10,509 nt of DNA from Candidatus Eiseniibacteriota bacterium (lineage in GTDB: Bacteria > Eisenbacteria > RBG-16-71-46 > DASYSL01): contig JANPEF010000126.1 in NCBI GenBank assembly GCA_031431875.1, forward strand, positions 1-10,509. The letters are read 5' to 3'. The notes beneath the pieces were generated by a model. That model saw only the letters and a list, made by a program, of their open reading frames with translations, made no database searches and was not told the origin of the DNA. Both the position numbers and the translations under genes were made by a program. Shown piece by piece: positions 1 through 10,509 of this stretch. How positions within the stretch are numbered: position 1 is the first letter of the stretch; each line of letters starts with the position of its first letter.

Positions 1-218
1 CGGGCCGCGCGACCCGCGTGCTCCACGACTACGAGAAGACGACTGGTCTTCCGGGCGAAGTTCTCACCTCCGCCGGTGACGGCGACGATCCGTGGTACCG
101 CATCGTGCTGGGGCGATTCGCCAGCGAGTCCGCAGCGCGCACGCGCGGCGACCAGCTGCTGACGAACGGCATGATCGCCGAGGCCATCGTCATTCCGTAC
201 ACGCCCCGCCAGGACTGA
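1..218 (+). CDS. SPOR-domain (peptidoglycan-binding) protein, C-terminal part; 5' end lies outside the window
   Basis: The frame is open from position 3 to TGA at 216-218. PWYRIVLGRFASESAARTRGDQL matches the SPOR pattern (W/Y)YRVxxGxFxxxxxA. Confidence 0.75.
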   Translation, partial: GRATRVLHDYEKTTGLPGEVLTSAGDGDDPWYRIVLGRFASESAARTRGDQLLTNGMIAEAIVIPYTPRQD

Positions 219-588
219 CCGCACCCGACAGCCCGAGCGCGAGTTGCTCCCCCGGCACCACTTCGGGCACCGGTGCGAGGCGGATGGTGCGGCGATCGCC
301 GATTCCGTGCCGACGCGACAGCTCCTTCACCGTCGCTCGAATCCCCTCATCCACCTCTCTCGGCAGGGAAGCGCCGCGTCGATCCCCACCGCGACGAGCG
401 TGAGGCGATAGCGACTCTCGGTCGGCTGGTAGGGATCGGTCGCCGCGCCGCTCGAACGCGCACACGTAGCAGAACGCGCAGCGATGCGAGCAACCGGTGT
501 ACGGATTGAGCGACCACGCGAACGGCATGCCCGTGACGCGATTGAGCGCCGGGGTGCAGGGGGACTCGCGATAGCGGATGTGCGGCAT
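190..588 (-). pseudogene. Internally deleted radical SAM gene, Rv2578c/SplB-like family
   Basis: The N-terminus ALNRVTGMPFAWSLNPYTGCSHRCAFCY carries CxxxCxxC (469-492). The family motif GAATDPYQPTESRYRLT (449-399) is in a different frame. A C-terminal-like LPREVDEGIRATVKELSRRHG...EQLALGL follows. About 130 codons is far too short for a radical SAM barrel. Confidence 0.8.
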
Positions 589-744: not shown

Positions 745-820
745 GTCCCCATCGTCTAGTGGCCCAGGACACCGCCCTTTCACGGCGGCGACGCGGGTTC
801 GACTCCCGCTGGGGACGCCA
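745..820 (+). tRNA. tRNA-Glu (anticodon TTC)
   Basis: 76 nt. Acceptor stem GTCCCCA/TGGGGAC; anticodon stem CCGCC/GGCGG with loop CTTTCAC (TTC at 779-781); T-arm GCGGG-TTCGACT-CCCGC; discriminator G and encoded CCA at 818-820. Confidence 0.98.
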
Positions 821-843: not shown

Positions 844-1416
844 TCAACGATACCGGACCTTGACTCTCCCCCAGGTCGCCTGAGCCGCGGGAACGCTGAT
901 CTCGCGCACGACGTTCACGTTGTCGAATCGCGCACTCCAGTCCCGGCTTCCCGGCTCGACCACCAAACAGAACGCGATTTCGTGCGCGCCGCAGGGGATG
1001 GCGGAGCCCCATGTAGTCCATCCCGCGTAGGCATTCGCATTGTCGCAGTACTCGATCCTACCGTCGAGCCAGACACACATGCGCGCGGTATTGAGATCGG
1101 GATAGGACGACTCGAGCACGACTTGATAGCCAAGCCCGCAAATGGTCAGGTCCGCGGGCTCTCCGCAGTCGAACCGCGTGCGGATGCACGCCTGTTCCCG
1201 CGAGGAGCCGTTCCCAGGCGCACGGATCAGCGCATGACCGCCGGGATTTCCGCCAACCGATGGAAAGTAGACGCTCCATCCTGCAGGCAGAGCATCCACC
1301 GTCCAGTTCGCGCCGCCCAATTCGAAGTCGCCGTTCGGCAGTTGTGCCGACGCAGGGCCCGCGCCTGTCAATCCGGCCACCGAGACGAGGAGTGCCGCAA
1401 GCACTCGTCCTGTCAT
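844..1416 (-). CDS. Secreted protein, 190 aa, probable beta-sandwich/CBM-like domain, with C-terminal TWGRVKVRYR motif
   Basis: GGAGG RBS upstream of ATG. Sec signal peptide ends ASA|Q. The mature part starts LPNGDFE and ends FDNVNV before VPAAQATWGRVKVRYR-stop; 7 Cys. Confidence 0.85.
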   Translation of the reverse strand: MTGRVLAALLVSVAGLTGAGPASAQLPNGDFELGGANWTVDALPAGWSVYFPSVGGNPGGHALIRAPGNGSSREQACIRTRFDCGEPADLTICGLGYQVVLESSYPDLNTARMCVWLDGRIEYCDNANAYAGWTTWGSAIPCGAHEIAFCLVVEPGSRDWSARFDNVNVVREISVPAAQATWGRVKVRYR

Positions 1417-1482
1417 CGCATCCCTCCACTGGGGATCGGGTAGGAAATAGACGCCACCTGATGCCTCGGACCTCCGCGTGCC

Positions 1483-2163
1483 CTAACGGTATACCGTTTT
1501 CACTCGACCCCAGCTCGAGGGATGCGCTGGGAGCCCCTGCCTTCTTGGCGGGCAATCAGGCACTTCAGAGGGATCGTTCCAAGTGAGACGATCGTGTTCC
1601 GGAAACACTTGAGCGAACGTGTCCCCCGCGATGCAGACGCCACCCGCGAACAGGAAGCACAGCGACTCGCCCACGAAGAAGCAGTCGGTCTCCGCGAGTC
1701 CATGGTCGAACGTAATCGTCGCGAGACCGTACCGTCGCAGCGGGTCGGGGACAAATGTGGGGTCGAAACGAAATGAAAAGGACAGTTCGTCCGTCCCCGC
1801 GTCCTCCCCACGCGACCATCCCGCGAGAACGTCGAGCCCCGGAATGGTGTCGCAGTCGGCCACGAAGGGTCGTGCCACGAGCCCCGACGGCCCGGGGCAA
1901 CCGCGAGGGAAGAATCCCCAGGCCGTCTGATAGCCCGTGTTCACTTCGACCGATAGGACAAAGAGCTGGATGTTGGCGGGGAGTCCGGTGATGGAAAGCG
2001 TCTGCGTGTAGAGGCCGGGTCCCTCGTAGTCCCGGTTGCGGACGAAAGGCTCGCATCGATCCCAGTTGTAGAGAGCGACCAGCTCCGCCGCGGCGGGAAT
2101 CGCCGTCAGAAGTAGGACGACGGCAGCAGCGAACCATGCGGCGGGAAGCAAGGGGCGGCGCAT
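1483..2163 (-). CDS. Secreted Cys-rich hypothetical protein, 226 aa, with C-terminal SWGRVKTVYR motif
   Basis: Start revised from 2217 to ATG 2163: AAGGAG lies 7 nt upstream and MRRPLLPAAWFAAAVVLLLTAIPAAA|E is a clean signal peptide. 7 Cys; ends LPAHPSSWGRVKTVYR-stop. Confidence 0.85.
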   Translation of the reverse strand: MRRPLLPAAWFAAAVVLLLTAIPAAAELVALYNWDRCEPFVRNRDYEGPGLYTQTLSITGLPANIQLFVLSVEVNTGYQTAWGFFPRGCPGPSGLVARPFVADCDTIPGLDVLAGWSRGEDAGTDELSFSFRFDPTFVPDPLRRYGLATITFDHGLAETDCFFVGESLCFLFAGGVCIAGDTFAQVFPEHDRLTWNDPSEVPDCPPRRQGLPAHPSSWGRVKTVYR

Positions 2164-2300
2164 CCAAGACTCCTTCTGGGGGCTGCAAGGATACCCTGTC
2201 CACTCTGCACGGACCATCGCAATCGGAACTCAGGCGAGCTTGAGGGCCCTCCGGATTGATTGCAGGCGCTTAAACCACACCTCGAGCTGGTTCCAACTTG

Positions 2301-2318
2301 GCGGGTTCAGGGACGCCA
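2301..2318 (+). repeat. Degenerate direct copy of the tRNA-Glu 3' end (possible att remnant)
   Basis: GCGGGTTC-A-GGGACGCCA versus tRNA 793-820 GCGGGTTC-GACTCCCGCTG-GGGACGCCA: 8+9 nt identical, with the middle 11 nt replaced by one base. Confidence 0.4.
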
Positions 2319-2347
2319 TTCCTGCATCGACGCCCATGGTGCTTCGA

Positions 2348-3106
2348 TCACCCGGGGTTCCGACTCTCGCTCGCCGGGTGGAACCGGATCGCCTGCCCCA
2401 CCGACAGTCGACCGATGCGCGTGACCGTGCCGTAGATTCCCGCGTTGTTCTCGTTCGCCCGAACGACCGCCCTGAGCACTGCCGGAGCCGACTTCGCGGA
2501 ATCGGGATCGAGGTTCACCATCGAACAGCGCACGTCGCGCTGCGTGACGGCGATGGCCGGGGCGTCGTTTCCCTCGCCGAAGGTGAGCCCGCCGCCCACC
2601 CACTCATTTTCCTGGAACGGCGTCGATCGTGACGACCGGACAACGACGTTCGGGCGGAAGCGTCGCACGTCCGCGCTCCCCCCCGACAGCCGTCCGACTT
2701 CTCGAACCGTGTCGGTGGCGATCACCGACATGCTCGCCTCGTCGAAGATGCCCTGTTTCAGCTGCATCATCTGTACGGGTGCCCCGTAGCGTCGTCCGAC
2801 CTCCGCGGCCAGTTCATCCCCGAAGACCAGCATCTCCTCGCCGTCCGGCGTGCGAACATGCGTCGGGAGTTCACCCGGAGCGGCGCCATCGTGTCGGTGC
2901 GGAGCGAAGCGGAGCAGGTCGGGAAACCTGCCCGCATTGAGCCACGGAAATCCGCCGCGGTCCTCTATCCGCCGGAAGGCCAGGCGGCGGTCCCCATTGA
3001 TGCCGTGCCATCCCACGTCGGCGACCTCGAGACGTTCGCCGCGCATGGACTTCACGGGATACCGGAAGATCGCTTCGACGTGTCCGATTTCCACAGTCAT
3101 GTTCAT
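2348..3106 (-). CDS. MOSC domain-containing protein (YcbX/mARC-like), 252 aa
   Basis: Start revised to ATG 3106, with AGGAGG 6 nt upstream. Motifs IFRYPVKSMRG, GDRRLAF, RRFRPNVVV, RCSMVNLDP, GIYGTVTRIGRLSVGQ. Confidence 0.93.
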   Translation of the reverse strand: MNMTVEIGHVEAIFRYPVKSMRGERLEVADVGWHGINGDRRLAFRRIEDRGGFPWLNAGRFPDLLRFAPHRHDGAAPGELPTHVRTPDGEEMLVFGDELAAEVGRRYGAPVQMMQLKQGIFDEASMSVIATDTVREVGRLSGGSADVRRFRPNVVVRSSRSTPFQENEWVGGGLTFGEGNDAPAIAVTQRDVRCSMVNLDPDSAKSAPAVLRAVVRANENNAGIYGTVTRIGRLSVGQAIRFHPASESRNPG

Positions 3107-3148
3107 GCGAACCCTCCTGGCGGATCCACGAATGCGTTCGACGAGCGG

Positions 3149-3208
3149 ATTGTACGCGAGCCCGCCCTCCCGCGAAATGCCCCACGGCATTCCCGGACGT
3201 GGTATCGT
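3149..3208. promoter_or_regulatory. Putative divergent promoters between the MOSC gene and the secreted-protein gene
   Basis: Minus-strand -10 TACAAT (3154-3149) and plus-strand extended -10 TG-G-TATCGT (3200-3208). The -35 boxes are weak. Confidence 0.35.
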
Positions 3209-3265
3209 TCGCGCCCTGTCGTCCATTGGTCCACACTTTCGTGCCCCCTCTTCGAGAGGCCCCCC

Positions 3266-4027
3266 ATGTACGCACGCTTCGCCGCGCCGCGACCCTCGGC
3301 CGTGTTCGCCTTGCTCCTGTTCGCCACCACGCTGGGATCCGCCTCGATCGCCGCCGCCCAGGCCTGCGGCCCAGCCGCCTGCGGCACGGGGTTCCAGTAC
3401 ATCGACTTCGAGTCCCTGGCCCCCGGCACCTCGGTCGAGGGCCCGGCTGCGATCCACCCGGACCTGACGATCTCGAGCGTGGCCTGGCCGTTCGGGCCGA
3501 CCTGCCCGCTCGGTAGCGCCGCCGTCATCGAGGAGGGCAATCTCTTTCCGTTCGTCTCCTACGGAACCACCAGCGCAGTGCAGAACGGTTGCCTCAACGG
3601 AATCCGCGGCTTCGGCGACGACTCGGGTTGCGTACTCGACTACGACTTCGCGTTTCCGGCGGTGGCGGGCGTGTCGTGCTTCTCGATCCGCATGCTCGAC
3701 TTCGGCGACCTCTTCCCGTTCGCCAACCCGACGCACGTCGTGACGCTGACCGCCTATGACGCGGCGAGCACGGTGCTCGACACCGACGTCCTCACCATGA
3801 CCGGTGCGGTCGACCTGGTGGGCGGCGACGCCTGCGTCTCGCAGGCCGGCGCCCCGGGCAATTATCGCCTCGTGGTTTCCGGCCCGGGCATCGTCCTCGT
3901 GACGCTGCGCTTCAATGACTCGCCGGATCCCGGCGTCGGCTTCGACGACATCACGTTCTGCGAGGCGGGCGCCCCGACCCCGGCGCTGCCCGGATCGTGG
4001 GGCGGGGTGAAGGCACAGTATCGTTGA
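3266..4027 (+). CDS. Secreted Cys-rich protein, 253 aa, with C-terminal SWGGVKAQYR motif
   Basis: Start revised to ATG 3266, with GAGAGG at 3254-3259. Signal peptide ends AAA|Q. Domain bounded by IDFESL and GFDDITF; 8 Cys; ends TPALPGSWGGVKAQYR-stop. Confidence 0.88.
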   Translation: MYARFAAPRPSAVFALLLFATTLGSASIAAAQACGPAACGTGFQYIDFESLAPGTSVEGPAAIHPDLTISSVAWPFGPTCPLGSAAVIEEGNLFPFVSYGTTSAVQNGCLNGIRGFGDDSGCVLDYDFAFPAVAGVSCFSIRMLDFGDLFPFANPTHVVTLTAYDAASTVLDTDVLTMTGAVDLVGGDACVSQAGAPGNYRLVVSGPGIVLVTLRFNDSPDPGVGFDDITFCEAGAPTPALPGSWGGVKAQYR

Positions 4028-4125: not shown

Positions 4126-5937
4126 ATGCGCCATTCGTTCGCCGTGTCGTCCCGCGCGACGACGCTCGCCGTCGTCGCGCTCTCCTTCCTTGTCGCCCCC
4201 GCCACCGCCCAACCCTTCACCCGCGTCGTCGATCCCGCGATCGACGCGTTCGTCCAGTCGTGCAGCAGCGCGAGCTGGATCGACGCGGACGGCGACGGCG
4301 ATCTCGACCTGTTCGTCACCACGTGGTCGGCGGCCACGCCGAACGTCCTGTTCCGCAATGACGGCGTCGCCGGCTTCGTCCGCGACGCGGGCTTCGGCCT
4401 CGAGACGGTGAGCGGCGAGTCCTTCGGCGCCGGCTGGGCCGACGTCGACGGCGACGGCCGCCCCGAGCCGTTCGTCTCGCAGCTCTTCGCCGCCGGCGGC
4501 GTCCTGTTCCAGTCGACCGGCGGCACCTTCGTCGCGCGGCCCGACCTCGTCGTCACCGGCGTCGCGGTGAAGGGCCAGGGCGCCTGGGGCGACTTCGACG
4601 CGGACGGCGATCCCGACCTGGTGATCGCCTGCCTGCTCGGCACCGGCGGCATCACGACGGCGAACCGCCTCTTCGTCAACGACGGAGGGTTCGCCTTCAC
4701 CGAGCGTGACACCGCCACGCTGGCCTCGGTTCTCGACACCCACCACACCGCGACGTGGTGCGACTACGACGACGACGGCGACGTCGACCTGTTCTTCGCC
4801 GCCGGCGGCGTGGGGACGGGAAAGCGCGACCGCGCGTGGCGCAACATGCGGGTCGAGAGCGGCACCGCGTTCTTCACGCCGATCACGACGGGCCCGCTGG
4901 TCACCGACTTCCACGACTCGCAGCTGATCAGCTGGGCCGACGTCGACAACGACGGCGACCGCGACGCCTACGTGATCAACTACACGACCTACCCGAACAT
5001 GCTCTATCGCAACGATGGCGGCGGGACCTTCACCAAGCGCACCGGCATCGGGACGATCGCCACCGATGCGGGGCTCGCGCACGGCGCGGCGTGGGGCGAC
5101 TACGACAACGACGGCGACCTCGACGTCTACGTCGCGCGCGACGGCGGACAGGCCAACCGCTTCTACCAGAACGCGGGCGACGGCACGTTCACCGCGATCA
5201 CGACCGGCGAGTTCGTCACCCTCGGACGCTCCAACTGGAGCGCGGTCGCCGGCGACTACGACCGCGACGGCGACCTCGACCTGTTCGCCCCGGTGCGCGA
5301 CGCGAACGGACCCGGCCTCCTCTATCGCAATGACCTCGCGTCGGGCGCGCACTGGTCCGCGATCCACGCGGTCGGTTCCACCGGCCGTTTCCCGGTCCTC
5401 GGAGCGAAGCTGCGCGTGCGCGCCGTGATCGGCGGCCTGCCCCGCTGGCAGGTGCGCGAAGTCTCTGCGTCGACGGGCTACGGCGGCCACGACATGCTCG
5501 ACGCGCACTTCGGTCTCAGCGACGCCGCGTGGATCGACACGCTGATCGCCGAGTGGCCCGGCGGCACCCGCGACACCGTCGTCGGCCTTCCGGTCGATCG
5601 CGTGCTCACCCTCACGCAGTCGGTCGGTGTCGTGGACGTGGCGGCCCCCGCCGGCACACCGCAGGCGACCGGGCTCACGCTCGACGCGCTCTCGCCGAAT
5701 CCCACGCGCGGCGCCGTCCGCCTGTCGCTCGCCCTGGCGAACACCGGCCCGGTGCGGATCGACCTGCACGACGTCCGGGGCCGGCACGTGCAGACGCTAT
5801 TCGCAGGGCGCCTCGAAGCCGGCCGCCACGCGCTGCCGGGGACAGTGCCGGCGGGGCTGCCGGCGGGCGCCTACTTCGTCCGGGCCATGGCTCCCGGGCA
5901 GGCGACGGCCGCGAGACGCCTTGCCGTGGTTCGTTGA
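4126..5937 (+). CDS. FG-GAP/VCBS-repeat plus ASPIC/UnbV (CRTAC1-like) secreted protein with C-terminal T9SS type A CTD / FlgD-Ig-like domain, 603 aa
   Basis: Start revised to ATG 4126; signal peptide ends ATA|Q. Seven DxDxDG-type repeats. The ASPIC-UnbV segment is GAKLRV...QVREVSASTGYGGHDMLDAHFGL...EWPGG. The tail is SPNPTRG...IDLHDVRGRHV...LPAGAYFVRA...RLAVVR. Confidence 0.92.
   Translation: MRHSFAVSSRATTLAVVALSFLVAPATAQPFTRVVDPAIDAFVQSCSSASWIDADGDGDLDLFVTTWSAATPNVLFRNDGVAGFVRDAGFGLETVSGESFGAGWADVDGDGRPEPFVSQLFAAGGVLFQSTGGTFVARPDLVVTGVAVKGQGAWGDFDADGDPDLVIACLLGTGGITTANRLFVNDGGFAFTERDTATLASVLDTHHTATWCDYDDDGDVDLFFAAGGVGTGKRDRAWRNMRVESGTAFFTPITTGPLVTDFHDSQLISWADVDNDGDRDAYVINYTTYPNMLYRNDGGGTFTKRTGIGTIATDAGLAHGAAWGDYDNDGDLDVYVARDGGQANRFYQNAGDGTFTAITTGEFVTLGRSNWSAVAGDYDRDGDLDLFAPVRDANGPGLLYRNDLASGAHWSAIHAVGSTGRFPVLGAKLRVRAVIGGLPRWQVREVSASTGYGGHDMLDAHFGLSDAAWIDTLIAEWPGGTRDTVVGLPVDRVLTLTQSVGVVDVAAPAGTPQATGLTLDALSPNPTRGAVRLSLALANTGPVRIDLHDVRGRHVQTLFAGRLEAGRHALPGTVPAGLPAGAYFVRAMAPGQATAARRLAVVR
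4276..5289 (+). repeat. Seven FG-GAP-like Ca-binding blades (probable 7-bladed beta-propeller)
   Basis: WIDADGDGDLDLFV, WADVDGDGRPEPFV, WGDFDADGDPDLVI, WCDYDDDGDVDLFF, WADVDNDGDRDAYV, WGDYDNDGDLDVYV, AGDYDRDGDLDLFA. Confidence 0.85.
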
Positions 5938-6063: not shown

Positions 6064-7194
6064 ATGCTGCGTCACGGTTTTCGCGCGCTCCTCCTGCTGT
6101 CGTCGGCCGTCGGTCTCGTCCTCTACTTCTCGGCGGCGCTGCCGACCGTACGCACGGCCGGACCATCCGCCGCCCCCGACTCGGTCGAGTCGGCCATCCT
6201 CGCCCAGGCGAATCATCTGCTCGATCATGCCTCGCCCTACGTCGAGCCGACCGGCGACGCGCCGGTGAGCCTCATGCCCGGCTACGGCATCGCGATCGCA
6301 CTCCTCATGGGCGCCGACGATGCGCAGCTGTGGATCGTGCGGCAGCTCGCGCTGCTCGCCACCATCGTCGCAGCGCTTCTCGTCTTCGGGATCGTCAAGG
6401 CCGAGACCGGGAGCTGGTCGCTCCCCTTCGCCGTCGCGACCCTGGCGCTCGTGGGACCGGCCCTGTTCGGCGCAGCGCCGGGCGCGGCTCGCCCGGAATC
6501 GATCGCGCTCCTGTTCGCGCTGCTGGGCTTCGCGACGCTGCGGTTCACGATCGGCGTGGTCGGCGCCTTCGGGGCAGGCGCGCTGCTGTCCCTCGCGTTC
6601 TTCGTTCATGCACCGGCGCTGTGGTTCGTCGTCGCGGCCGGGCTGTCGCTGGCGTTCGAGGACCGGCGGCGCTGCACCGCCTTCGGCATCGCCGCGCTCG
6701 GTCTCATCGGCGTGGGCTACGGGCTCTGTTCGCGACTCCTGGGCCCGTGGTTCAACGCCGCGGCGTGGGACGAGCCGATGCGTGCGCTCGCGCTCGCGGG
6801 AGTCTCGGTCGTGCCCTTCGCGGCGTCGCACCTGCTCGGTTGTCTGGCGGTGTGCACGATGGCCGCCGTGTTTTCCTTCGCGATCTCGACCCAGCCGTGG
6901 CACGAGCGGCGCGGCCTCTGGATGTGGCTGGCCGTGGCCGGCATCCCCGCGAGCCTCGCGGCCTGGGCGAGCGCGCCGGGCGCGACCTCGCTGCAGTCGG
7001 GACTCGTCACGGCGCTCGTCGTCGGGGCGATCGCGATCGACCTGGTGGCCCGGCACCTCGCCGATTCGTTCGGCTCGGCGAGCCACGAGGGCGAGAGCGT
7101 GATCTTCGTCGCGGTGGCGCTGCAGATGTTTCTCTTCGTCGCGCTGACGCCGACGCCGGGATGGATTGCGCAGGCCATCGCCGGGAGGGGCTGA
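6064..7194 (+). CDS. Polytopic membrane protein, 376 aa, possibly GT-C (ArnT/PMT-like) fold
   Basis: Roughly ten hydrophobic segments. The first loop is DSVESAILAQANHLLDHASPY...MPGYGIAIALL, and ARPES precedes a later helix; both recall GT-C enzymes. GC-rich third codon positions support this frame. Confidence 0.75.
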   Translation: MLRHGFRALLLLSSAVGLVLYFSAALPTVRTAGPSAAPDSVESAILAQANHLLDHASPYVEPTGDAPVSLMPGYGIAIALLMGADDAQLWIVRQLALLATIVAALLVFGIVKAETGSWSLPFAVATLALVGPALFGAAPGAARPESIALLFALLGFATLRFTIGVVGAFGAGALLSLAFFVHAPALWFVVAAGLSLAFEDRRRCTAFGIAALGLIGVGYGLCSRLLGPWFNAAAWDEPMRALALAGVSVVPFAASHLLGCLAVCTMAAVFSFAISTQPWHERRGLWMWLAVAGIPASLAAWASAPGATSLQSGLVTALVVGAIAIDLVARHLADSFGSASHEGESVIFVAVALQMFLFVALTPTPGWIAQAIAGRG

Positions 7195-7208: not shown

Positions 7209-9875
7209 TCAGAGGATCGAAGGGCGCTTCTCCTCCAGCGGATCGTGAAACATCGCCTGCCCGGCGATGGCATTCTTGAAGCCCCACGCCAGGAGGAGCC
7301 CGACGGCGCCGACGCCCAGCGCCGTGCGGTCGACGTACCACGTCGAGAGATCGAGCGTGGCCGGCACGGCCCCGAGCACGAGCCCGACGAACCCGGCGAC
7401 GATTCCGGCGAGCAGGCCCCAGCGCAGGAGGATGAACGTCAGGATCGCGGCACCGATCCCTTGATCGATGAGGGCCGGGACGAGCGCCCCCGGCTCCGTC
7501 GCCGAGAGTCCCGCGACCGTCGCGCCGAGCACCCACGCGATGATCGCCGCCCACGTCCGCTGCCGAACCATGAAGTGGACGAGGAGGATCCACACCAGCG
7601 TCCAGAGCGGATTGAGCACGCTGATCGACGCCCTCCACACCGTCGAGTAGGCAGTATTGCCGAGCGTGGCGAGCTGCCCGAGCACGCCCTGCTCGGGCAG
7701 CGTCTGTGGATCGATCCAGCCGAGCGTCGCGGCGCCGATCCGGGCGAGCAACAGGACCAGCACCAGCGCGAGGCCGGCCACGCCCCCGACGACGACGTCG
7801 CGACCGACCAGCGGATCCTTCACGCGGCCCGAGGTGAGGCGCGCCCAGCCCACGAGCATGTCGGGCCACAGGCGCCGCACGTACGGCTCGATCGCCACGT
7901 AGGCGAACCACATCGTCACGGCATGCAGGAGCGAGTGCGCGAGCCCCCGCCCGTCGGCCACGTCGGCCAGCAGATTCGGAACGCCGCGCTGGCCGAGCGA
8001 GTGCGTGAACACGGACTCGAGCAGGTTCACGATGAGCACGAAGGCGGCGAGCCGCGTGGCGCCGCGACGATCGCCACGCCCGGCGGCGAGATTCCGGCGC
8101 GCCAGGAACAGCGTCGCGAGCGTCGCGCCAAACGTGAAGAAGAGCGAGCTGAACCAGTCCGCCGGCGCATCGGCCGGCTCCCGCGGCGTGGACCGGCGGA
8201 TGATCTCCGCCGTCGAGTGCGCCGAGTCGGTGAGCGCAAAGTGGACGATGCGCGCGCCGAGGGCGCCCGCCTCCGCGTGGGGCGCCGACGACGGATTGCC
8301 GGGATCGCGCCACGCGCCGACCCGGTCTGCGAAGACGGCCGGCGCACGGCGCATCGGCGCCGCCACCAGCCGCGTCGTGTCGAGGGCCGCGGCCGCCAGG
8401 AACGGGGCGAATGGCGCGAGCCCGGGATCGACCCGCCCGGAGTCGGCGGTCACGGCGGGCGCCAGGCCCGGTGGTGCGACGATATCGAGCGCAACGAGGT
8501 GGCCGGCGCGATCGAGGACGATCATCGCGCTGCCGTCCCCGCCATGCGCCGGATCGCGGTTGTTCGCCGCCATCCCGTGCACCCCCGCCGGGATCATCGC
8601 GCGCTCGCTCCAGCGCCGCCAGAAGTAGGCTTCGTCGGGTACCTTTGCCACCTTCGCCGTTCCGACCGCGATCCGCGGCGCGAGCACGAACCCCTCGGCC
8701 GAGTGGCGCGGCGGCGTCTCGACCCCCGCTGCCCGCAGCAGTTCGCTGGCTCGCAGCGACAGGGTCGTGATCGGCATGCCGAAGCTCGCGTAGAGCGGAC
8801 TGCGCAGCGCGAGGATGGCGACGAGCAGCACGAGCGACGCGACCCCGCACGCGATCGCGATCCGCAGAGGCAGGGCTCCGACCGTCGTGGCGCTGGCCAC
8901 CAGTTCGGGTGACGGCGTCTCGCCGGCGGCGAGCGCGGCGGCGAGCGGATCCCCGCCAGGCAGCGCGGCCGCGACCTGCAACGCCGAGGATGGGCGCTCG
9001 CGCGGATCGCGCGCGAGACAGCGCGCGACGACGCGCGCGACAGCGGGATCGAGGTCGACCGACAATGCCGACGCCAGCGAGTCCGTGCCGGCCAGGTGTT
9101 GCGCGCGAATCGTTGCGAAGTCCGTGCTGGCGAATACGCGCTTGCCGGTGAACAGTTCGTGCAGGATGAGCCCGAGCGCGTAGATGTCCGAGCGCGGCGT
9201 CGCCGTCCCGGTGAGGATCTGCTCCGGCGCCATGTACGCCGGCGTGCCGACCACATGCCCCTGCGCGCCCGCGACGTCGCCGGCGGCGAGCGCGAGCCCG
9301 AAGTCGGTGATGCGCGCCCGCCCGCGCCCGTCGAGCATGATGTTCGCCGGCTTCAAGTCACGATGGAGGATGCCCTGATCGTGCGCGGCGGCGATGCCGG
9401 CGCAGAGCTGTCGCGCGACCTGCGTCGCCTTGTCGGCCGGCAGGTGGCCGATCCTGCGCAGCAGGCTCGCCAGGTCCTCTCCGTCGACGAACTCCATCGA
9501 GATGAAGTGGCTGCCCCCCACCTCGCCGATGTCGTACACGCGGCAGATGTTGGGGTGCGAGACCTGGCGCGCGTGACGCACCTCGGCGAGCAGCAGCTGC
9601 AGGCGCTCGGCGTCGCCCTCGAGCTCGGGCGGCAGGAACTTGAGCGCGACCGTCTGCCCCAGCTTGAGGTCGTCGGCGCGGTAGACCTCGCCCATTCCGC
9701 CGCGACCCAGCAACGCCACGATGCGGTAGCGCTCCGACAGCATCGTCCCCGGCTGGAAACGCCCGTGAATGCTCGAGCTGGACGAGGGCGGATGCGACTC
9801 GGGCGAGGCCGGGCCCGCGGGCCGCATCGCGGCGCCGAGCGCGGTCGGATCGAAGGGTGGCGGGGATTCGCTCAT
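7209..9875 (-). CDS. Membrane-bound Hanks-type Ser/Thr protein kinase, 888 aa
   Basis: Kinase motifs LGRGGMGEVY, VALK, HPNICRVYD, HRDLKPANIML, DFG, GTPAYMAPE, SDIYALG. These are followed by one TM helix, a soluble domain and a multi-helix C-terminal membrane region. Confidence 0.96.
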   Translation of the reverse strand: MSESPPPFDPTALGAAMRPAGPASPESHPPSSSSSIHGRFQPGTMLSERYRIVALLGRGGMGEVYRADDLKLGQTVALKFLPPELEGDAERLQLLLAEVRHARQVSHPNICRVYDIGEVGGSHFISMEFVDGEDLASLLRRIGHLPADKATQVARQLCAGIAAAHDQGILHRDLKPANIMLDGRGRARITDFGLALAAGDVAGAQGHVVGTPAYMAPEQILTGTATPRSDIYALGLILHELFTGKRVFASTDFATIRAQHLAGTDSLASALSVDLDPAVARVVARCLARDPRERPSSALQVAAALPGGDPLAAALAAGETPSPELVASATTVGALPLRIAIACGVASLVLLVAILALRSPLYASFGMPITTLSLRASELLRAAGVETPPRHSAEGFVLAPRIAVGTAKVAKVPDEAYFWRRWSERAMIPAGVHGMAANNRDPAHGGDGSAMIVLDRAGHLVALDIVAPPGLAPAVTADSGRVDPGLAPFAPFLAAAALDTTRLVAAPMRRAPAVFADRVGAWRDPGNPSSAPHAEAGALGARIVHFALTDSAHSTAEIIRRSTPREPADAPADWFSSLFFTFGATLATLFLARRNLAAGRGDRRGATRLAAFVLIVNLLESVFTHSLGQRGVPNLLADVADGRGLAHSLLHAVTMWFAYVAIEPYVRRLWPDMLVGWARLTSGRVKDPLVGRDVVVGGVAGLALVLVLLLARIGAATLGWIDPQTLPEQGVLGQLATLGNTAYSTVWRASISVLNPLWTLVWILLVHFMVRQRTWAAIIAWVLGATVAGLSATEPGALVPALIDQGIGAAILTFILLRWGLLAGIVAGFVGLVLGAVPATLDLSTWYVDRTALGVGAVGLLLAWGFKNAIAGQAMFHDPLEEKRPSIL

Positions 9876-9979: not shown

Positions 9980-10509
9980 ATGACGCCGACCGACGACACT
10001 CCCGCCCCGCTCTCGACGGCCCGCCAGGCCTCGCTCTCCTCCTACTGGTTCGCCTACAACCTGCAATGGGCGGCGCTCCTCGCCATCGTGCTGCCGAGCC
10101 AGGTCGCGTTGCTCGCCGGCGACGCGCAGAAGGAGTTCGCCACCGGGACCATCACCGCGATCGGCGCCCTGTTCTCGCTCGTGCTCACGCCGCTCGCGGG
10201 AGCGCTCTCGGATCGCTCGGGCTCGCGGCACGGCCGGCGGCGCCCGTTCATCCTGGTCGGAACCCTGATCAACGTCGCGTTCGTCTTCCTGCTGGCCCGC
10301 TGCGGCGCGGGCACAGGGCTCGCGCTCTTCACCCTGTTGTATCTCGGCGTGCAGCTCGGCAGCAACTGGGCCGCAGGACCGTACGCGGCACTCCTGCCCG
10401 ACCTCGTGGCGAAGGCGCAGCGCGGCGCGGCCAGCGGTTGGATGGCGCTCATGAGCACGCTCGGCACGCTCGTCGGCGCGCTCGCCGCGGGGCAGCTGGT
10501 GCGGCCCGG
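9980..10509 (+). CDS. MFS transporter, N-terminal part; runs off the window and is not in the ORF track
   Basis: ATG 9980 follows a GGAGG RBS. My translation gives MTPTDDTPAPLSTARQASLSSYWFAYNLQWAALLAIVLPSQ..., MFS motif A-like GALSDRSGSRHGRRRPF, and ALLPDLVAKAQRGAASG. Confidence 0.92.
   Translation, partial: MTPTDDTPAPLSTARQASLSSYWFAYNLQWAALLAIVLPSQVALLAGDAQKEFATGTITAIGALFSLVLTPLAGALSDRSGSRHGRRRPFILVGTLINVAFVFLLARCGAGTGLALFTLLYLGVQLGSNWAAGPYAALLPDLVAKAQRGAASGWMALMSTLGTLVGALAAGQLVRP

Follow-up and report, generated by a model that had tools for sequence, protein, structure and literature searches.

A short C-terminal peptide tag on small exported proteins of Eisenbacteria, a candidate signal for a motor-less type IX-like route

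The described systems closest to the peptide treated here are the C-terminal type IX secretion system (T9SS) signals and the tripartite signals. Types A, B and C of the T9SS signals are all folded domains (excerpts of PMC12618676, PMC10202324 and PMC11285876), and the short C-terminal domains (CTDs) of Prevotella intermedia measure 43-55 amino acids (aa; excerpt of PMC11969387). Type B (TIGR04131, with PorP/SprF shuttles; excerpt of PMC12618676) and type C (ChiA) provide a precedent for one translocon with several signals, some of them uncleaved and used as tethers. Tripartite signals, namely PEP-CTERM/exosortase, LPXTG/sortase, GlyGly-CTERM and MYXO-CTERM, need a transmembrane helix (excerpt of bioRxiv 10.1101/2023.06.07.544157). 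The peptide compared with them here, called the tag below, has 16 residues and closes three proteins in the window, that is, the whole 10,509-nt stretch of contig JANPEF010000126.1 from a Candidatus Eiseniibacteriota bacterium (assembly GCA_031431875.1).

Like the T9SS type A CTD (TIGR04183/PF18962, in this genome in the FlgD_ig form, PF13860), the tag stands strictly at the C-terminus of many unrelated passengers with Sec signal peptides, follows a similar linker, takes the same place after the same domains and occurs in the same genomes as SprA, PorU and PorV. It differs in its length and predicted helix, having no beta-sheet and no motifs B, D and E, in its smaller passengers (median 224 versus 667 aa), in a +1 proline in most copies of this genome, in its occurrence mostly in genomes without GldM, and in that export of its carriers is putative. 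Type B and C signals, unlike the tag, need 100 to more than 200 residues; type B relies on PorP/SprF barrels, whose genes usually lie downstream of the substrate gene, and for the tag a quick tree of PorV-family proteins gave no dedicated shuttle. With the tripartite signals it has in common a terminal position, multiple copies, invariant residues, signal peptides, unrelated passengers and swaps, but it has no transmembrane helix and 2-3 dispersed basic residues, and no exosortase was found in the genome. The C-terminal helices of MinD (the membrane-targeting sequence, MTS) and PBP5 are likewise short and terminal with aromatic and basic residues, whereas the tag is sequence-specific, portable over dozens of families and not amphipathic above shuffled sequences. 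The tag is in neither the T9SS-signal nor the tripartite family, yet it behaves as a sorting signal by most published criteria.

The tag in the window and across the genome

All three open reading frames (ORFs) finish in the tag exactly at the C-terminus, as the original prediction stated; the coordinates given there included the stop codon and were off by 3 nt. The proteins and their tag copies are as follows.

844..1416, minus strand: tagged protein 1 (190 aa), an ORF with a Sec-type signal peptide (by eye), a domain of no known family and the C-terminal tag
847..894, minus strand: tag copy 1, VPAAQATWGRVKVRYR, position-weight score 47 bits; stop codon at 844-846
1483..2163, minus strand: tagged protein 2 (226 aa, second Met as start), within a 7-member tagged paralogue family of this genome
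1486..1533, minus strand: tag copy 2, LPAHPSSWGRVKTVYR, position-weight score 36 bits; stop codon at 1483-1485
3266..4027, plus strand: tagged protein 3 (253 aa), with a signal peptide, a predicted jelly-roll beta-sandwich (cleaved-adhesin/CBM-like) and the C-terminal tag
3977..4024, plus strand: tag copy 3, TPALPGSWGGVKAQYR, position-weight score 47.5 bits; stop codon at 4025-4027

A DNA repeat as the source of this likeness was rejected because the codons differ synonymously across the three copies (Pro CCC/CCA/CCG, Gly GGG/GGT/GGC, Lys AAG/AAA/AAG, Tyr TAT/TAC/TAT), which agrees with the earlier claim that conservation lies in the peptide. Full-length homology was rejected as well, pairwise BLASTP having confined the similarity to the last 15-35 residues (E 0.001-0.004; other pieces E > 1). 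No other obvious likeness had been claimed among the three, and this held with one addition: a last strand, FD[ND][VI], is common to proteins 1 and 3, which may therefore have a jelly-roll fold in common. Protein 1, missed by the codon-based gene caller, gave no Pfam or NCBIfam match at E <= 1, and protein 2 gave no meaningful family match in the same searches. The AlphaFold2 (AF2) model of protein 3 (predicted local distance difference test, pLDDT, 81.5) has an unpacked tail helix at residues 245-251, of low confidence; its top Foldseek matches are gingipain adhesin domains (E 1e-5, TM-score 0.38), and the model is also CBM-like. In none of the three proteins does the tail match an existing Pfam or NCBIfam model.

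The window is contig C126 of a genome of 3.75 Mb (70% GC, 166 contigs, 98.45% complete). A six-frame scan of this genome found the pattern [ST]WGx[VILAM]K 66 times at most 8 residues from a stop and 4 times elsewhere; 65 of the 66 terminal copies stand exactly 4 or 5 residues ahead of the stop, a placement far beyond chance. With a position-weight scan, 66 tails scored above 30 bits over a background below 15 bits, with two cases between, and 67 tails lying at most 4 residues from a stop exceeded 20 bits, the consensus being [TV]-P-A-x-x-x-[ST]-W-G-x-[VIL]-K-x-x-Y-R-(x)-stop. The tag is thus on about 2% of the genes of this genome (67 of about 3100). The codon-based caller, which returned 3125 genes, called 63 of the 67 carriers, and no alternative genetic code was needed for reading them. 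Signal peptides, judged by a loose hydrophobicity heuristic and not by SignalP, were found in 57 of 63 tagged against 1181 of 2877 other complete genes (odds ratio 13.6); the six carriers without one appear by eye to be start miscalls or contig breaks. The genome search and the enrichment check proposed by the original prediction thus both favoured it: the tag is neither confined to a few genes, nor equally common internally or on cytoplasmic proteins, nor attached to full-length homologues.

The 62 carrier cores long enough for comparison fell into 44 clusters; the carriers have a median length of 240 aa, and the passengers reach at most 476 aa. The CTD proteins with a median of 667 aa are 47 in number and were picked by a regular expression. 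Pfam searches of 53 other carriers left 34 without any match and gave 19 a domain at E <= 0.01, including CHRD, lamin tail, CBM4_9, CBM96, NHL, PD40, beta-helix, DUF4394 and DUF7450. Their tail regions matched no Pfam family model and neither TIGR04183 nor PF18962, so that the family check suggested earlier returned no existing model for the tail, and none of the 63 tagged proteins bears both the tag and the CTD motif. Tag genes adjoin another tag gene in 12 of 63 cases. At locus L120 seven tagged paralogues stand in tandem; in several of them acidic residues come after a lipobox. A 93-aa protein (C91:45726-46007, minus strand) is hardly more than a signal peptide and the tag, and a paralogue of a tagged DUF4394 protein (C78:837-1706, minus strand) has a tail that stops after PVPV.

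Exchange with other signals, form and distribution

The core of protein 3 alone was searched against 1.84 billion representatives and gave 269 matches, the best 150 of which were examined. Among these 150, three end in the tag, five in a T9SS type A domain (TIGR04183) over the cut-off and two in PEP-CTERM, one of them over the cut-off; the rest have other or no recognisable ends. In P0456, P0460, P0479 and P0491 the other signal comes directly after the protein-3-type domain, and in two of the five homologues ending in TIGR04183 the CTD directly follows the domain. The tail occupies the place where homologues have a T9SS type A domain or PEP-CTERM, and, as with C-terminal sorting signals in general, homologues elsewhere have a different signal or none. 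Close homologues of protein 3 (n = 105) have the strict tail in 78 cases, variant tails (by eye) in 26 and no tail in one. The tail is very probably a portable signal that is recognised by a protein or localises its carriers; as a terminal, multi-copy element of signal-peptide proteins from unrelated families that swaps with T9SS CTDs and PEP-CTERM, it remains the candidate sorting signal first proposed.

Information content from W0 to R8 in 104 homologue tails, chosen partly by their W..K pattern, has its strongest periodicity at 100 degrees (7.07 versus 1.3 at 170-180 degrees). The conserved positions 0, 3, 4, 7 and 8 lie on one face and the variable positions 2, 5 and 6 on the other, the conserved face (W0/G1/Phi3/K4/Y7/R8) being aromatic and basic. 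The tail is helical in both AF2 models (pLDDT 50-65). Its hydrophobic moment is no higher than expected by chance at 100 degrees (0.424 versus 0.396 +/- 0.022 in shuffles), and that at 170 degrees exceeds shuffles (0.66 versus 0.39), driven by basic residues, so that a strand stays a formal option. Since conservation peaks at 100 degrees and the hydrophobic moment there is at shuffle level, the tail reads as a recognition face more than as an amphipathic membrane anchor. Of the amphipathic helix with W, V and Y envisaged before, the helix is thus retained and the amphipathicity is not. The stretch from W to R comprises 9 residues with a mean hydrophobicity of -0.24 and no transmembrane segment and, together with the lack of any library match, this accords with the view that the tag is neither a transmembrane-helix signal nor a folded CTD.

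Upstream of the helix, [TV]-x-[AVT] resembles the linker ahead of the CTDs of this genome. Another likeness is to the PorU sites of P. intermedia (T/GIN and T/SLE, for example), with their preference for a small residue at +1 (excerpt of PMC11969387). At +1 a proline is found in 51 of 66 tags here, 53 of 118 public tags and 3 of 46 CTD linkers, and a small residue in the FN3 family described below. Bonds ahead of proline resist most proteases. In this lineage the T/V is followed by proline instead of the small or acidic residue of cleavable CTD linkers, and the tag is therefore probably retained for the most part, not cleaved, although PorU has been described as sequence-independent (excerpt of PMC4804311).

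The DNA pattern was found in 199 of 206 genomes of the Eisenbacteria phylum (a reversed control gave 8 matches in total), with a median of about 30 copies in the 165 phylum genomes outside one low-copy family. Four of the seven genomes without it were rechecked, two having variant tails and two being undecided. The tail is also present, among at least 129 stretches, in records of Krumholzibacteriota, Latescibacteria, Poribacteria, Zixiibacteriota, KSB1, Melioribacter, Kapaibacterium and Chlorobiaceae, and the earlier statement that similar tails occur in Eisenbacteria, Krumholzibacteriota and Poribacteria was borne out by genome and record scans. Counts in 39 genomes from those other lineages are bimodal, with 13-88 copies in 22 and 1-5 in 17, and a Poribacteria genome with a variant tail gave 107 looser matches against 35 control matches. 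Fifteen of 16 loci on viral contigs (L328-L343) look like genuine small tagged proteins, most with signal-peptide-like starts; phages may thus borrow the export route of their host. The tag is widespread and apparently undescribed: no description was found in the literature, motif strings included, in a search whose coverage left out most subscription journals, and the excerpt of a Poribacteria genomics paper (PMC3909097) makes no mention of it. Thousands of unannotated proteins in abundant uncultured phyla carry the tag, and a model of it would assign them a location at once.

In most low-copy genomes outside the phylum the tail is on one conserved protein of about 135 aa, consisting of a signal peptide, one FN3 domain and the tail. 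This protein has 2062 homologues and no family name; no common family model was found for 25 of them, the ESM Atlas gave 30 unnamed clusters, and the PDB gave generic FN3 domains only. In 25 deep members, 22-49% identical to the first, the tail has the same W, G, K and F throughout; all of the 120 top homologues end in TWGSIK[AE][LM]FR, and the deepest conserved form of the tail is [RK][RK]TWG without proline. The neighbouring genes look like housekeeping genes (maf, pyrR, fur and pyrB, named by eye). In a sample of 251 genomes from the phylum that holds Melioribacter, the FN3 and tag gene occurred in 89 of 138 genomes with SprA and without GldM, in 1 of 61 with both and in 0 of 52 without SprA. 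Being single-copy, it offers a one-gene test in lineages with cultured members. No orthologue was found in the present genome, where the same FN3 domain as ahead of the Ignavibacteria tag directly precedes the immunoglobulin (Ig)-type CTD in two proteins. In CTD proteins on contigs C81 and C146 the FN3 domain ahead of the CTD begins VPAxxxF, a motif in register with the [TV]PAxxx[ST]W of the tag, and the first half of the tag may mimic or descend from this FN3 strand.

A candidate reader and its alternatives

The tag likely serves small proteins exported by Sec as a portable peptide address, and its reader would be a conserved protein of a motor-less type IX-like route comprising a SprA translocon, a PorV shuttle and a PorU sortase. 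We give a probability of about 0.5 to the tail being a helical peptide signal read by such a motor-less T9SS. In the predicted form an extended [TV]-P-[AV] is followed by S/T capping a helix of 2.5 turns, with W0, G1, Phi3, K4, Y/F7 and R8 on the conserved face. Taking the place of the 80-residue Ig domain, this helix would dock after Sec export in a reader groove, the most plausible reader being the canonical porU-linked PorV or SprA itself. The tag, presumably kept for the most part in this lineage, would label small adhesin- or sugar-binding-type domains for export and also tether them, non-covalently, as a coat, the reader delivering the carriers to the cell surface and holding them there. 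A T9SS signal of this kind would be about one third as long as the shortest one described (43-55 aa), would differ in structure, and would provide a minimal display tag as well as a handle on a SprA that works without the Gld motor. More tentatively, and at somewhat less than even odds, a ten-residue helix may be the complete outer-membrane export and tethering signal of the motor-less SprA translocon, the form found in most non-Bacteroidia relatives; the ancestral carrier would be the small single-copy FN3 protein, from Ignavibacteria to KSB1, and expansion in Eisenbacteria, Krumholzibacteriota, Poribacteria and phages would have dressed the cell in dozens of small folded domains.

The genome has a SprA gene, 117 FlgD_ig matches, three C25 peptidases, one of which (contig C58) passes the PorU cut-off and adjoins a PorV-family gene, and 11 PorV-family matches, the PorV match lying above the family and below the equivalog cut-off (136 versus 250 bits). 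GldM was not found, GldK, GldL and GldN being outside the search; as a control, the GldM model exceeded its cut-off in 62 of 251 other genomes. PorP/SprF (PF11751) was not found in this genome either, with no positive control responding. Across the phylum, SprA is present in 122 of 125 near-complete genomes, and PorU-type peptidases were found in all five tag-bearing genomes tested. A 396-aa predicted lipoprotein of this genome (L327, C26:22099-23289) weakly matches SprA positions 390-548 (E 1e-5). Cassettes at C106:63234-69739, C145:18503-25581, C147:23110-30082 and C75:50361-56295 were noted by eye, each joining a large CTD protein to a TonB-receptor-like gene and to a private barrel of the PorV family.

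Several points weigh against a motor-less T9SS as the reader. The co-occurrence with SprA is confounded by kinship, and the SprA-negative genomes look mostly like one small-genome class, perhaps one loss; as kin are not independent, the cross-table is a pattern and not a test. The FN3 and tag gene is missing from 49 of the 138 genomes with SprA and without GldM, and it turns up in 15 of the 151 genomes from the GldM-bearing order of G397, which we take from gene content to be Hymenobacter-like (G246 and its kin being presumably Rhodothermia-like). Three near-complete genomes with tags gave no SprA match, two of them having PorU, and neither SprA nor PorU was found in G220 and G227, which have 5 and 2 tags, misbinning being possible. 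The dedicated machine of the original prediction did not emerge: a quick PorV-family tree of 70 rows (61 listed paralogues and 9 from this genome) contained no clade confined to tag-bearing genomes, and no gene family was linked to tag genes among neighbours of the FN3 and tag gene, in low-copy Eisenbacteria, where no common neighbour was found, or in this genome, where among 189 neighbours of tag genes only CTD proteins (9) and kinases (8) recur and no barrel family was seen. A dedicated PorV paralogue was rejected, two tag-bearing genomes with few paralogues having only the canonical PorV and PorQ clades in common. Known T9SS signals are folded beta domains of at least 43 residues, none of which resembles the tag helix (excerpts of PMC11969387 and PMC10202324), and some carriers (L120) are predicted lipoproteins with an anchor already present. 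Binding by the tag and its role in export are putative.

A first alternative, which we consider unlikely, has the tail docking with a conserved envelope protein that is no part of the T9SS, such as a periplasmic or surface scaffold, a chaperone or an outer-membrane protein, the link to SprA reflecting common ancestry only. A one-faced, near-invariant helix over deep lineages implies a protein partner without telling which; no T9SS gene adjoins tag genes, the tags of G220 and G227 would be accounted for, and most GldM-bearing T9SS genomes lack the tag gene. The direct swaps with the T9SS CTD, the PorU-site-like linker and the lack of the FN3 and tag gene in all 52 SprA-negative genomes argue instead for the T9SS. 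In a less probable alternative the tail has no protein partner and adheres to lipid A, to a membrane face or to an anionic polysaccharide. Such a membrane-binding tail would have analogies in the MinD and PBP5 C-terminal helices, and the aromatic and basic residues on one face and the net positive charge would suit it, but a 9-residue stretch of this mean hydrophobicity, with its 100-degree moment at shuffle level, would not, and lipid binding would need less specificity than a near-invariant W, G and K at fixed spacing to [TV]P[AV] and the stop.

Very improbable is a tail descended from, or analogous to, PEP-CTERM (cf. PEPxxWA) without its transmembrane helix and processed by an unrecognised protease or transpeptidase. 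Both have E-P-[AST]-[ST]-W, PEP-CTERM stands in for the tag on homologues, and the small, non-enzymatic passenger domains are like those that accompany PEP-CTERM. Against this kinship, the tag has no transmembrane segment, its deepest form lacks the proline, and P-x-[ST]-W is a common helix start; no PEP-CTERM protein was found in this genome, nor any exosortase (PF09721), for which the control responded in 1 of 14. Just as hard to credit is a tail for self-association or lattice formation, or one that marks its carriers at the C-terminus for degradation or regulation by a periplasmic protease. The fixed distance to the free C-terminus suits carboxylate recognition and some tag genes are adjacent, but nine helical residues would be too short for bundling alone, 104 of 105 homologues of a stable beta-sandwich retain the tag, and it swaps with surface-sorting signals.

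Neighbouring features of the window

4126..5937, plus strand: FG-GAP/ASPIC secreted protein (Pfam FG-GAP_3 and UnbV_ASPIC) with an Ig-type T9SS-like CTD at its end
2348-3109, minus strand: MOSC-domain protein
3-218, plus strand: end of a SPOR-domain gene
6064-7194, plus strand: unnamed membrane protein
7209-9875, minus strand: Ser/Thr kinase with a membrane domain
9980-10507, plus strand: transporter-like start (by eye)

The Ig-type CTD is the other export signal of this genome, and that of the FG-GAP/ASPIC protein scores 16.9 bits with TIGR04183, below the cut-off of 23. No link to the tag was seen for the other five features. A tRNA-Glu(TTC) lies at 745-820 (plus strand), and the low codon-model scores of proteins 1 and 2 and the adjoining MOSC gene may mark an island inserted at this tRNA. 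At 190-588 (minus strand), a short ORF starts like a radical-SAM protein (CxxxCxxC; weak PF04055 match) but lacks the enzyme body and looks like an internally deleted remnant.

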